A stretch of 64,000 bases of DNA from Escherichia coli (GTDB taxonomy: Bacteria > Pseudomonadota > Gammaproteobacteria > Enterobacterales > Enterobacteriaceae): NCBI RefSeq assembly GCF_045037415.1, contig NZ_CP173438.1, one strand, 5' to 3'. This document shows, piece after piece, positions 7,130 to 13,100 of this stretch (position 1 is its first letter; the number at the start of each line of letters is the position of its first letter). Position numbers: made by a program.

Positions 7130-10100
7130 CATTGCCTTAATCTCCGCAAAGATAACCTCGTCATTCCGGACATTCTCTGCCAGGCATATGTCGATGTAAT
7201 CCATAAACGATTTCAGCTTAACCCTTTTGTGGCCGGTCTTTCTGGCTGGCGGTTCAGGGGATGTTTTCTGGTTATCGTGTACCACAAAACTGGGATATTG
7301 CCCCGATAGTCACATTTCAGATTGATCGCGGTCTGAAGATGTGGCACTGAGGTAACGTGCTGGTGTCACTGGTATTGCTGAAGTTATGGTTTTTCGGGGT
7401 CAGGTGAGCCTGTTGTGTGTATGCTTTTTGTTCAGATCAGAGGGGGGCTGTGCGGACAGCGGCTTTTGTCTCCGGGCATTCACGCCTGAACGATGAATGC
7501 GATTTTCAGCAATATTTGTCTTTGTGACACTCTCTGGTTGAGAAGCTAATGCGCGCCCCTGTTTCCACAGAGAATGAGGCTTGCCATCAGCCGAAACATC
7601 AGTATTCCACGCCATACAGACGGCGCCTGACCATGTGCTGATGCAGGTAAAATGTTTCAACTACAACTGTTCGGGTTGCTATGCAACGAAACAGCGATTC
7701 TCACGATCTTTAACTGCAACGTTTTTCCGCCTGAAAGCTGACTGCCTCCTGCTGAGGTGGGAGGCTATGATTCAGTGCGTTTATAGTCTCCGGGGTATGC
7801 ATGTACCGGAGCATACCATTTCTGGTGGATAACAAGCCGGCACATTCAGCCTGCAGTGAAGATGGAGGCACCTGGTTGTGAAGAACGTTTCTGCCCGTGG
7901 CTGCTTCGCATCATCAATGGTATTCATACCCGCTCAGAAATGACCGGGTGCTGAAGCCCTCCGTTATCGCGCAGTATAATGACGTATATGATCTGTGGAC
8001 GAGTGAGCGGCGTGCCTGATGTACGCCGCTATTACTGTATTTTACCACAGGGCTGGTTTTCTGCTGCCAGCCCTGTGGTTATCAGACATCAACTGTGAGC
8101 GGCATCAACCGATGTACGGTATGCCATAAGCACGTACTGATCCATCAGATTTGTCAGTGGTTCACTCTGACCCTGACGTGCAATGATCCATTGCTCCAGA
8201 TCTTTTTCTGATTTGTGTTTCAGGTTTTTCGTCCAGTCGTCAAGGCTGTTTCCGGTCATTAAGTCAAGCCAGCAGAGCCAGACCAGTTTGAGACGTAACT
8301 CCGTGCCGCCAAACTGACGGAAGAGGCTGATCAGTTTGTTTGCCAGAGAATGTTGCTTCAGGCGCTCACATTCAGACAGCAGGATCCCTTCCAGCATCGG
8401 ATGATGAACCAGCAGGTGTTCGCTGGTGCATAAATTCACCACCAGATCATCATCCAGGGACGGGGAGCTCCGTTTGTCCGGACCATAAATCAGCCGGTGC
8501 AGACTCTGGGGAACGATGGCAATCTCCGGTTTTTCGCCATTGAATGACACCCACCCGGGCGTCAGATTATGGAAATAGTAGATATTCGGATGACACACGC
8601 CCCATGATACGGCGTGCCGGGTGAAGCCGGTCAGCCATTTCTGGTAGTTTTCATGGAGCAGCTCGTAACGGGTCTGATACTGTTGTTTCATTTTCATATT
8701 CCTCACGGGGGATAACAGGCAGCAGAGCGCCGCCGGCAGGCCGGAGATTGCGTCTGCTTTGGGCGAAGGGTTAGTGGTTAAAAATTACGGACGGGACTGT
8801 GCAATACGCGCCTGCAGCCAGGCTTCCACTTCACTTTTCAGCCAGCGGGAGCTGCGCCCCATTTTGATGGGGGCAGGAAAGCCCCCAACTTTGATGAGTT
8901 TGTAAAACCACTTATCGGTTAAGCCGGTCAGTTGAGTGATAAACGCCATGTCGACCATCTGGTCATCCATCAGCGAAACTGGGGTAGCCATGAGAATGTT
9001 CCTCCGGATGTTGTTAAACCAGCCGGTGTGGTCATGAAAACAGCGCGCCACCTTCACCGGCATAACAACCGGGGAGAAACGTAAAAAATAATCGGGAATC
9101 TGGCTGTCCGGAGATAAACGGGGGGATTGCGATGGCAGAGCCGTAGCGGAATCCCGGGGGGTGCCCCTATTAAGTTGTCAAGCATGTTATGACGCCTGCG
9201 GGGTATAAAAAGTCCCGTCGCGCATCATGGCGAACAGAACGTCGCAGCGTCGTCTCGCCAGGGCGATAAGCGCCTGATTGTGTCGTTTTCCCTGACTCAT
9301 TTTGCAGGTGTAGTAAGCCCTGGAGAGCGGATCCCTGAGCGCGGCGAAGGCCGACAGGAACAACGCCCGTTTGAGAGCTTTATTACCCCGTCGCGAGGGA
9401 TGCTCACCGCGTATTGACGAGCCGGATCGCCGAGTTACCGGCGCAAGGCCAGCATAAGCAGCGAGATGTGCGACAGAGGCGAAGGCGCGGCAGGCGACCT
9501 CGGTGAGGAGTCTGGCTGCGGTCCTGACACCGACTCCGGGCATACTGGTCAGGACCGGGTAAAGAGGGTGAGCAAGAACTCGCTGTTCTACCGCAAGCGC
9601 CACCTCGTCTCTTTGCTTACGCAGCGTGATGAGCTGGAGTGCCAGACGTGGCAGTACTACGGCAGCGGCATTCGTGCCGGGAACGACGACGGTTTGTTCG
9701 GCCAGTGCCTGAGCTATGTCTGCTGCAAGGCGTTTACCCAGACGAGGCGCAAGTTTGCAGAGCTGGGCTGCCAGCTTCTTCTCACCCAGCGAAGCGAGTT
9801 TTTCTGGTGAGGGATATCGCTGGAGAAGATCGAGTACCGCCGGGTGATCAAGTCTCGGACCGAGAACGCGCTCCAGTGCCGGATGTATCTGGGTCAGAAG
9901 GCCGCGGATACGGTTGCTGGCCTGCGTTGTCTGTGCGGCAAGATCATCATCGAAGCCGCAGAGCATGGAGAGTTCGGCGATTTGCTCGTCAGCCAGTTTC
10001 AGCGTGCGTAGCGCGTGAGGCAGGGTACGGGCAGCTTCGGCAATGATGGCAGCGTCACGAGCATCAGTTTTAGCTTCACCGGCGTGTAAGTCGGCTATGC

Positions 10101-13100
10101 GGCGCATGGCCAGTCCAGGGAGGTATCCGACAAGGACTCCTTCTGAGCGGGCAACGGCGACAGGTAACGCACCGATGGTAGCTGGCTGATCAACAACCAG
10201 CAGTATCTGACCATGTTGTTTCAGGTCAGATATTAGCGACCTGAGTTTGTTTTCGTCGTTGGGTAATGCTTTATCGAACAGGCGTTTACCTGAACGATTA
10301 ATGGCTACAGCGTGATGCGTATCTTTACCGACATCAACGCCGATAAAGACCTGGACGGATTCGTAATCGCTGGATTCGGTCATTCTGTCTCCCTTGTATA
10401 TGGGTTAAGCAGATAACCACGGGGAGCAGGTACCGGCATCCACGTTACAGACGGTCCCGGCAAAAGTGCCTGACCTGACCCCTATTAGCGGTTACCAGCG
10501 CCCCACCAGACCCGGTGACATCACCCCCCGGATCATGGACGACTGGGGGCAGTAATCATGCCGGGTCTGGCTGGCTAACACCCCATTATAAGGGGTACGA
10601 ATAAAGTAACGGGGGTGCGAAAAGATGCTTCCGCACGCACGCGCGATAAAGAGGGGATAGTTTTCGTGAGGACAGGGAGAGAAGCAGGCGTTCTGATAAT
10701 TGCAGAGTTGTTTTCGGAGGTGGTTACAGTGAGTCAGCCCGTTCCTGGCGAGCAGGAGACTGATATCACCGATGGGATAAGGTTGTCTGATTGGTATTAT
10801 AAATATAAGAAGTCATCAGAGAGTAACGTAAAGGATTTGCCAGAATAACCTAAGAGAGTAAATCTCTCCGGTAACAGAGCGCTGTGAAGCATTCTGTATC
10901 AGAGTGCAAATACATGAACGCTGATGCGTAAAATCAGCAGTGACACGCCAGCTCCCCCTATGCCCATTCCTGTATAAGACATGAACTGAGCGTATTAATG
11001 CTCCTGCCCTGAGACTGAGCCGGTGAGTGAGGGGCTGAGAAATCCCTCTTGACACTGCTCTAACCAGAAATACTTCCCCGGTTGTTGCGGTGCGTCCGGA
11101 TCCCCGATAACGGAACACTAAGGCTGTATTGCGGGACACCAGGTAAGTGGCAGCCCGTAATACGTCAGGAGACGCGGGAAAAGTGAATTCCCACACGCGT
11201 TATAAACTTACCCTTGCGGAGCTGGAAGCCTTTAACTCTGCCGTTGACAACCGGCTGGCAGAACTGACCGCAAATTTTACGAGTGCGTGCTGGCTTCAGT
11301 CTTGTCACCTGAGCGTTCGGTAACGGAGGCGCGGGCGGTAATAGACTGATTTTCAGGTATTACCGGCTTACGGCGTGTGGTTGATATTGAGGGGCTGTGA
11401 GTTTCGCGTATTTGTCAGAAACCCAGACGAGTTTTCCTGTATGGGACGAAATAAGGCAGCGGCAATACCTGGAAAAATTTAATATGGTATGAAGGAGAAC
11501 CTGTCGGTTACGCTTAATATACCCGGTACACTGTCAGCTCAGGGGATACATGAACCGTTATCTCACCAGCTACACAGTATATACACACTGACGCTGACAG
11601 TAGTCAGCAGGACCACAATAATCAGTGCCAGCAGTATGGTAACGATACGGTCTGTATTCCGGTAATAGCCGAAGGGGTCGACAGAACCACAATACGGGCA
11701 ACACACTGTATTATGAGTAATCGCGTTTCCACAGTCCCTGCACTTCTTTTTGCGTATCACCATCACTCCCTCCTCACAGCCTTACCCGTAACCGGTTTTT
11801 TACATTAAAAAAACAACGCTGAAAATTCAACCGTCAGTCCGGAGACGACCGTTCGGGTTATCACAGAGTGCCTGAGACAGTGCCCTGCCGGAGGTCACTT
11901 CAGGGACTCTGCGCATTTTTTACGACGTGGCTATTCCGTATGAACCATACGGAGATTTAACCATGACCTACAAATACAACCCCTTCTGGCAGCAACGTAT
12001 TCGTGAGACAGTGCGGCACGCACTGAATGTTCATCCCCGCCTGACGGCATTGCGGGTTGACCTGCGTTTCCCGGATGTACCGGCAGCAACGGACGCAGCT
12101 GTGATATCCCGCTTCATCAATGCCCTGAAAGCCCGAATCGACGCTTACCAGAAACGTAAGCATCGGGAAGGTAAACGCGTGCATCCCACCACTCTGCATT
12201 ACGTCTGGGCCCGGGAGTTTGGGGAGTGCAAAGGTAAAAAACACTATCATCTGATGCTGCTGGTCAACCGGGATACCTGGTGTCGTGCCGGTGATTACCG
12301 CGCTCCGGGATCACTGGCCGGAATGATTGAACAGGCCTGGTGCAGTGCCCTGGGGGTGGATGCCGGATGCCATGCCACGCTGGTGCATTTTCCGGCCTGG
12401 CCGGCGGTGTGGCTGGCGCGTAATGATGACACCGGCTTTCAGCAAGTGCTGGAACGTGCTGACTATCTGGCGAAGGAGCATACCAAAGCTCACTGCACCG
12501 GTGAGCGCAACTTTGGCTGCAGTCGTGGCTGAGCCAGACAGACGAGTTATCTGACTTCAGTGTGATGACGTGTTCATGGCCACCACACTGATTTTCCCTT
12601 ATGAGACTGAACTGAAACCGCCATTCACACCTGACCACGCTGCCCGTACCGGGACGGCTGTTGCCTGCGTGTCGTCTGACGGTAAGGAACATATACTATG
12701 TACGCAAAATCCTTTCTCGCTCTTGATAGCAACGGACGTCTGACGGGCGCCCGTACTGTACAGGCCGCACCTTATGCTCACTACACCTGCCACTTGTGTG
12801 GCAGTGCACTCAGATACCATCCGCAATACGACACTGAACTTCCCTGGTTTGAACACACTGACGACAGGCTGACAGAGCACGGTCAACAGTGCCCTTATGT
12901 CAGGCCGGAGCGCAGAGAAATACAGTTGATTAAACGTCTGCAGCAATTCGTACCGGATGCCTTACCCGTGGTGCGTAAAGCCAGCTGGCACTGCAGACAA
13001 TGTCACCACGATTATTATGGGGAGCGGTACTGCACACACTGCCAGACCGGAGGATTCAGTATTCCCCGGACAACTCAGGAGGAAATATGCGAATTCTGAA

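Follow-up and report, generated by a model that had tools for sequence, protein, structure and literature searches.

The bridge RNA of IS621, an insertion sequence (IS) of the IS110 group, consists of a 5′ stem-loop, a target-binding loop, and a donor-binding loop (Durrant et al. 2024, PMC11208160; Hiraizumi et al. 2024, PMC11208158). In each loop, the guide on the 5′ side pairs with the bottom strand to the left of the crossover, the guide on the 3′ side pairs with the top strand to the right of it, and, once strands have been exchanged, two "handshake" bases located 3′ of the right guide pair with the partner DNA (PMC11208160; PMC11208158). ISEc21 of Escherichia coli uses a seekRNA, a short RNA from the upstream non-coding region that is needed for circle formation and for insertion that is site-specific and does not duplicate the target (Siddiquee et al. 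2024, PMC11187229); ISEc20 is not mentioned in that paper. The supplement of Durrant et al. (PMC11208160) enters "ISEc20;ISSfl4" as IS110 group with a long non-coding region in the left end (LE) (file 8), and clusters ISEc20 with ISSfl4 and, more coarsely, with IS110 of Streptomyces coelicolor, ISBma3, and several actinobacterial ISs. Here, we describe a copy of ISEc20 in a 64,000-nucleotide stretch of E. coli DNA (contig NZ_CP173438.1, RefSeq assembly GCF_045037415.1), which we call the window and to which all positions refer unless a locus number is given. ISEc20 and the bridge-RNA mechanism of IS110 elements are both already known, and a nested hairpin is ordinary for this family. In the searchable literature, ISEc20 and ISSfl4 are mentioned in lists only, and we found no published target description or guide map. 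The nested hairpin of this copy is most likely the target-binding arm of an IS110 guide ("bridge") RNA, for which a guide map is predicted below.

Identity and ends of the element

Judged by its sequence, the element in the window is one intact copy of ISEc20, a catalogued insertion sequence of the IS110 family (IS110 group). In a megablast search of 5,426 complete E. coli genomes, its open reading frame (ORF) carried the RefSeq name (Prokaryotic Genome Annotation Pipeline) "IS110-like element ISEc20 family transposase." Megablast also found the same 1.46-kb block at unrelated loci, and the window locus was without it in many E. coli genomes. The window copy differs from the copies at other loci at 4–8 positions per 1449 nt (99.6–99.9% identity) and from the multi-copy form at 4 of 1449 nt, with three amino acid changes and with both RNA loops identical. 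A probe of both ends of ISEc20 matched 1,450 of the 5,426 genomes (~27%).

The transposase matches the Pfam families DEDD_Tnp_IS110 (PF01548, E = 8e-49) and Transposase_20 (PF02371, E = 3e-21), and it has both the DEDD (RuvC-like) N-terminal domain and the IS110-specific C-terminal transposase domain with the catalytic serine. It is homologous to the IS621 recombinase (8WT6, E = 3.7e-13). The GVDVGK, KTDARDA, and SGSS motifs align between the two proteins, and the second acidic residue is Asp (in VVDQ) in the ISEc20 transposase instead of Glu.

The ends were defined by comparing insertion sites, empty sites, and tandem copies. The occupied sites were those in the window, in focB (L002), in a conjugative region (L003), and in the frmR–yaiO interval (L004), and the empty sites were L001, L005, and L006. 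The body of ISEc20 is 1449 bp long, with the right end (RE) at 9162 and the LE at 10610; including four shared C/G bases, it is 1453 bp long and ends at 10614. A preliminary description of this DNA had placed an IS110-family element at 9187–10560; the family call holds, but the ends do not, the real body being wider. On the + strand, the element and its flanks read ...GGGGGG|TGCCCCTATTAAG...AAAGTAAC|GGGGG(G)..., with a G tract on either side (Table 1). The termini of the 227-nt LE (GTTAC...) and of the 25-nt RE (...GGGGCA) are not inverted repeats, as the same description had stated for this family.

Natural head-to-tail arrays of ISEc20 have a period of 1453 bp (1449 + 4 C) and the internal junction GGGGCA-CCCC-GTTAC. 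Two copies are arrayed on plasmid pO177B1 (L094, 472–3385) and at least three on the SMN197SH3 chromosome (L095, 472–3843). We regard this tandem RE-CCCC-LE junction as the best available proxy for the circular junction; a metagenome scan gave no matches to the circle/tandem junction pattern. For annotation, 9162–10614 can be treated as one mobile element, ISEc20, with its predicted guide RNA.

Table 1. Features of the ISEc20 copy in the window. The RNA features are predictions; the minus strand is that of the transposase gene.
Feature	Position	Strand	Basis and remarks
Right junction, G6 tract (C6 in element orientation)	9156–9161	.	Abuts the right end at all insertion sites; would supply the crossover dinucleotide and the right target
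Right end (RE), 25 nt, CATGCTTGACAACTTAATAGGGGCA	9162–9186	-	Four insertion sites, empty sites, tandem copies
Within RE: left-donor segment TAATAGGGGCA; conserved TTGACA	9176–9181 (TTGACA)	-	
ISEc20 recombinase/transposase, 398 residues, intact	9187–10383	-	Pfam, RefSeq label, IS621 homology
Left end (LE), 227 nt, non-coding, encodes the predicted bridge RNA	10384–10610	-	Starts GTTACTTTATTCG at 10610
Predicted donor-binding loop	10421–10504	-	Basal stem GGGGCGCUGGUA/UACCUGCUCCCC, internal loop, distal stem 10453–10475
Predicted right donor guide GUAACGUGG	10440–10448	-	Complements CC(C)CGTTAC of the RE-LE junction/LE start
Predicted left donor guide UAAUAGGGG	10479–10487	-	Identical to RE 9164–9172 (9-nt direct repeat)
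Predicted target-binding loop	10503–10574	-	Fold (z = −3.7); compensatory outer stem; outer arms 10561–10570 and 10506–10515
Candidate right target guide GGGGGG (10524–10529) with handshake-like UG (10522–10523)	10522–10529	-	Near-invariant; complements the right junction
Candidate left target guide ACUGCCCCC, on the loop's 5′ side	10545–10553	-	Same sense as the target G + C-run
Predicted 5′ stem-loop ACCCCUUAUAAUGGGGU	10580–10596	-	Changes on both sides in 5 of 6 pairs; covariation 0.38 versus 0.17 shuffled, 0 of 500 shuffles as high
Left junction, G5 tract (C5 in element orientation)	10611–10615	.	~2–4 C element-derived, the rest target-derived; boundary within the run ambiguous

Insertion into C/G homopolymer runs

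ISEc20 and its relatives insert site-specifically into C/G homopolymer runs. The relatives were collected by a scan with one genome per species, which gave 80 loci (L007–L086) with transposases 71–93% identical to that of ISEc20; the hosts belong to Burkholderiales, other Proteobacteria, and Actinobacteria (for example, Microbacterium, Arthrobacter, and Cryobacterium). In element orientation, each of the six positions after the terminal CA is a C in 46–51 of 51 relatives, and the sequence is random beyond. On the left flank, at least four C precede GTTAC at 60–66 of 66 sites, and a G precedes the C-run at 35 of the 66. The modal pattern among the relatives, four C on the left and six on the right, fits a six-C target. 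TTGAC[AG] and ATAGGGGCA are also kept in their REs. Site-specific insertion had been anticipated in the preliminary description and agrees with all sites being C/G runs. The structured insertion target that it had suggested is not what we found: the hairpin is an internal structure on the transcribed strand, and the real target is the homopolymer run.

The numbers of C residues before and after insertion were compared at individual loci. In focB, the allele annotated as intact has G8 and the allele annotated as frameshifted has G6 (L002, L005, L096, and L097). The eight target C and four junction C equal the 6 + 6 C around the ISEc20 copy in this gene, and the corresponding balance at the window locus is 7 + 4 = 5 + 6 C. 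The counts at both loci fit site-specific insertion without a true target duplication, the bases being shared at the crossover. A six-C circular junction, assumed from the G6 "empty" focB alleles, was rejected given these annotations. The G tract at the insertion site of the window is hypervariable among empty alleles, with G6, G7, GGAG6, and G14 (L001, L087, L088, L090, and L092).

Some further observations were made at these sites. The strain that carries ISEc20 in the focB G tract is the O145 strain RM11626-C1, and the G8/G6 difference of this gene may reflect simple slippage or the footprint of an imprecise excision. The TTG repeat beside the G tract of the window site also varies (TTGTTGCG, TGTTGCG, and TTGCG, with TGCG in the window). 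In Cupriavidus laharis (L032, ~2714–2760), the right junction is GGGGCA|CGTTACTAC, beside a DNA-methyltransferase-like ORF, and the target resembles the start of the element's own LE and not a C run, in the manner of a donor-like off-target.

Nested inverted repeat and predicted RNA structure

On the + strand, CCAGACCCGG at 10506–10515 and CCGGGTCTGG at 10561–10570 form an outer repeat that encloses CCCCCC at 10524–10529 and GGGGG at 10545–10549. The nested repeat of the preliminary description therefore exists with the sequences quoted there, but it spans 10506–10570, past the claimed end of the element at 10560, and not the region around 10470–10540. It lies 41–105 nt inside the LE of ISEc20. 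The hairpins are part of the element, as they are present and identical in the copies at focB, the frmR–yaiO interval, the conjugative region, and the tandem arrays. The comparison with uninterrupted loci and other copies, proposed beforehand as a check, did not bear out the possibility that the ends map elsewhere and the hairpins belong to unrelated flanking DNA. The 72-nt segment folds at −39.9 kcal/mol on the transposase strand, compared with −27.6 ± 3.3 kcal/mol for shuffled sequences (z = −3.7; 0 of 200 shuffles as good), and its + strand folds equally well (z = −4.1).

The RNA structure was predicted from an alignment (A1) of 63 distinct LEs, taken from elements with 72–93% amino acid identity, using a consensus fold and explicit pair counts. 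In the consensus of these 63 relatives, the 227-nt LE contains a 5′ hairpin, then the target-binding loop, and then the donor-binding loop. The outer repeat (CCAGACCCGG/CCGGGUCUGG) corresponds to the basal helix of the target-binding loop; 98.6% of the cells of this outer stem are paired, and 7 of its 15 pairs are compensatory, with changes on both sides. Compensatory changes were also found in 7 of the 12 pairs of the basal stem of the donor-binding loop, and in its distal stem all five counted pairs scored, four of them with changes on both sides. Across the five helices of the two loops, 97% of the cells are paired, compared with 91% after column shuffling and 32–54% when the partners are slid by 1–3 columns. 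The inner CCCCC/GGGGGG pair is invariant, and the unpaired segments are the best-conserved parts of the alignment. G-U pairs are abundant (51/63 at columns 55/129, 60/63 at columns 72/113, and 63/63 at columns 85/99), and the predicted RNA was thus assigned to the transposase (minus) strand. The whole structure falls within 10421–10596 in the non-coding end that adjoins the recombinase gene, on the same strand. A pairing between the two donor guides proposed by RNAalifold (columns 148–158 with 191–203) was discarded: it contains no pair with changes on both sides, and the segments match the DNA ends instead. As a separate observation, columns 84 (window position 10544, A or U, after the C run of the left guide) and 101 (10530, C or U, before the G run of the right guide) co-vary by lineage and do not form a Watson–Crick pair.

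Transposases 71–81% identical to that of ISEc20, accompanied by nearly identical RNA loop motifs, occur in Burkholderiales and in Actinobacteria (Microbacteriaceae and Micrococcaceae). These resemblances imply a cross-phylum spread of what appears to be one fixed-target clade.

Assignment of the guides

The guide roles were assigned on the layout of IS621, and the RNA arms are predicted. The left donor guide shows direct covariation with its donor: the triplet that follows AUAG occurs in three variants (GGG, GGA, and AGG), and in 45 of 46 relatives it is the same as in the RE of that very element. The right donor guide GUAACGUGG pairs at eight of nine positions with CCCCGTTAC of the tandem junction (GGGGCA-CCCC-GTTAC). 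It is near-invariant (62 of 63 relatives, the exception being GCAACG in L086) and hence offers no covariation test.

In the target-binding loop, the reverse complement of the right arm GGGGGG-UG is CACCCCCC, which is the right junction, namely the RE-terminal CA followed by C6. The corresponding segment GGGGGGUG is near-invariant in the 63 aligned relatives and is the reverse complement of the invariant CA + C6 right junction. GCCCCC in the candidate left target guide is likewise near-invariant in the 63 relatives. As both the target and the target guides are invariant across the clade, they provide no covariation test. The two target guides would read opposite strands of a homopolymer target, and this would account for the inner repeat; we infer that the inner repeat represents the two target guides and is not primarily a helix.

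Proposed mechanism and alternative explanations

Putting these comparisons together, we estimate at about 85% the probability that the LE of ISEc20 encodes a bridge RNA and that the nested repeat is its target-binding loop. By analogy with IS621, the 5′-side ...UGCCCCC would read the target's bottom strand and the 3′-side GGGGGG the top strand, and the UG that follows would pair with the terminal CA of the element after strand exchange. The RNA-bound recombinase would align the circular junction ATAGGGGCA-CC-CCGTTAC with a genomic (G)C6–9 run, and strand exchange would take place at a CC dinucleotide approximately six bases from the run's 3′ end and would leave CA + C6 at the right junction and (n − 2) C at the left. 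The C counts fit a conservative exchange at CC, six bases from the 3′ end of the run.

Several observations weigh against this interpretation or some part of it. The count at frmR–yaiO is off by one, with 6 + 6 C compared with a G7 empty site, and the position of the crossover is not fixable because it lies inside a homopolymer subject to slippage. The left donor guide reaches the terminal CA at most, short of the proposed CC core, unlike that of IS621. Matches between the flanks and the variable bases of the left target guide are weak (p about 0.014–0.07 in a permutation test) and confounded by genome composition. As the inner CCCCC/GGGGGG is invariant, covariation is silent on whether it forms a helix, a guide pair, or both. 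Sigma-70 promoter scans gave no site in the resident copy or in the tandem RE-LE junction. The conserved TTGAC[AG] of the RE and TACNNT at positions 3–8 of the LE are 20–21 nt apart with four C between the ends; read by hand, the junction gives TTGACA-N20-TACTTT, which we do not claim as a promoter. In addition, Rfam gave no family match at E ≤ 1 over 8500–12000, a negative that has no bearing on the bridge-RNA assignment itself.

The hairpins could have a role other than guiding recombination. Shielding of the transposase gene from outside read-through transcription has been proposed for end-proximal hairpins of other insertion sequences, and a terminator, an attenuator, or a translational control element of this kind would agree with a hairpin that is strong, GC-rich, and located on the coding strand upstream of the gene, and with the lack of a site in the promoter scan of the resident copy. 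No U tract follows the hairpin, however, and a terminator scan finds nothing there; the hairpin lies upstream of the ATG at a distance of 120–190 nt, and the ribosome-binding site (10388–10395) has no part in it. The unpaired segments are better conserved than the stem, the opposite of what a simple terminator would show, and they match the target and the element junction, while a second loop of the same layout matches the element ends with covariation. We therefore regard such a regulatory role as highly improbable. Hardly better placed is the idea that the repeats act as DNA, in a cruciform or a single-strand hairpin bound by the transposase, in the manner of the IS200/IS605 subterminal hairpins or of the subterminal repeats in IS1111-type elements. 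DNA hairpins are used at the ends by some families, and the + strand of the segment folds as well as the minus strand. On the opposite strand and in a DNA cruciform, however, the abundant G-U pairs would become A-C mismatches, the structure begins 41 nt inside the element and not at its tip, and the recombinase is homologous to the RNA-guided recombinase of IS621 (PMC11208158). A third possibility, that the hairpins are flanking island DNA (a remnant attachment site or a REP-like (repetitive extragenic palindrome) element by alpA) with the true ends elsewhere, found no support and was conceivable only in that IS110 elements are without terminal repeats. It has already been refuted, as the sequence through 10610 accompanies the transposase in tandem arrays as well as at unrelated loci and is absent from the empty alleles of the window locus.

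The remaining alternative keeps the bridge-RNA mechanism and moves the crossover from CC to CA, with ATAGGGG-CA-CGTTAC as the circular junction. In this register, CUGCCCC-CA would serve as the left target guide, GGGGGG-UG as the right target guide, AUAGGGG-CA as the left donor guide, and GUAACG-UG as the right donor guide, so that all four RNA arms fit the IS621 template (7 + 2 bases) with no mismatch. The relative at L032 has the junction GGGGCA|CGTTAC, and a single C between the ends would place TTGACA and TACTTT 17 nt apart, an ideal promoter spacing. The insertion sites speak against it: none of the six E. coli left junctions has CA before CGTTAC, no CA is present in the empty targets, the natural tandem junctions carry four C and not one, and the C counts at focB (8 + 4 = 6 + 6) fit a four-C junction. 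Crossover at CA is unlikely, although less so than the explanations that dispense with a guide RNA.

A further and speculative step, to which we give an outside chance, is that the ISEc20 clade is a homopolymer-specialized variant of the bridge-RNA system. The mutually pairing target guides would gate themselves in the free RNA, the crossover would be measured from the 3′ end of the run, and a slip of the register would alter the length of the tract. If so, ISEc20 would drive tract-length (phase-like) variation at contingency-like G tracts in Proteobacteria and Actinobacteria, with G8 and G6 in focB and G6 to G14 at the window locus as possible examples.

Genomic context

The gene for AlpA, at 8785–9063, matches PF05930, and the element had been thought to sit where an integrase would be expected upstream of alpA. 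The sequences lend this expectation no support. None of the seven uninterrupted alleles has an annotated integrase, and the five that are readable at the insertion point contain only a G6–G14 tract there. The ~1.1-kb interval between alpA and the next genes has no integrase in either the empty or the occupied version of the locus, and in strain SK1144, which has the same insertion, the 14 kb to each side of the element, a mosaic made up of cargo genes and of fragments of IS100, ISL3, and IS66, contain no annotated integrase. ISEc20 simply landed in a G tract at this locus, and the block gives no clue to the integration module of the island.

The left part of the window is a mosaic island that contains IS100 (istB, 6368–7063), alpA, a YagK/YfjJ-family gene (11927–12532), and zinc-ribbon ORFs (12698–13497). 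Next to the element, a 77-residue ORF on the + strand (10615–10848) is labeled as a hypothetical protein in RefSeq, has no Pfam match, and starts with a GTG at the last base of the left-flank G run; it is probably spurious or altered by the insertion. Three tRNA-Asn (GTT) genes are located within 4.3 kb (34572–34647, 36981–37056, and 38805–38880) and represent the asn tRNA cluster, an integration hotspot for E. coli islands.

Comparison with known systems

The analysis provides a concrete predicted guide map for a bridge-RNA element that is widespread in E. coli; its biological interest is modest. An entire cross-phylum clade that appears to be fixed on C/G homopolymer runs would represent a simple natural target rule. 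The working principles of IS110 elements are unchanged; the specificity for homopolymers, the mutual complementarity of the guides, and the conservation across phyla add neat detail and no surprise.

ISEc20 resembles IS621 in belonging to the IS110 group, in its homologous recombinase, in the long LE upstream of the gene, and in the three-part order of the predicted RNA. The order within a loop, which is stem, left guide, small stem-loop, right guide, two handshake bases, and stem, is also found in ISEc20. In both systems, the left guides are top-strand in sense and the right guides antisense, the end of the RE and the start of the LE are what the donor guides match, and the two bases 3′ of the right target guide complement the donor and not the target, as expected for a handshake. 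The recombinase of ISEc20 is longer (398 residues) than that of IS621 (326 residues; PMC11208158), and the alignment is strong in the C-terminal domain only. The target of ISEc20 is a C/G homopolymer run, whereas that of IS621 is a REP-type 14-mer with a CT core. The target guides of ISEc20 are complementary to each other over 5–6 nt, creating the inner repeat, compared with 2 nt in IS621. In ISEc20, moreover, the left donor guide ends before the proposed core, and the promoter scan of the junction gave no site.

ISEc21 is likewise an IS110-type element of E. coli with an upstream non-coding region that encodes an RNA (predicted in the case of ISEc20), but it belongs to another clade and targets a conserved region in IS3-family transposase genes. 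ISPpu10 is like ISEc20 in having a bridge-RNA recombinase of the IS110 family whose RNA architecture and target logic vary in a clade-specific way (bioRxiv 10.64898/2026.03.19.712850). It has no 5′ stem-loop and depends on a hairpin in its target DNA, whereas ISEc20 keeps a predicted 5′ stem-loop and targets unstructured homopolymer runs. The cluster of ISSfl4 and IS110 is the clade of ISEc20 itself, with no difference of kind, and it fits the relatives found here in Burkholderiales and Actinobacteria.

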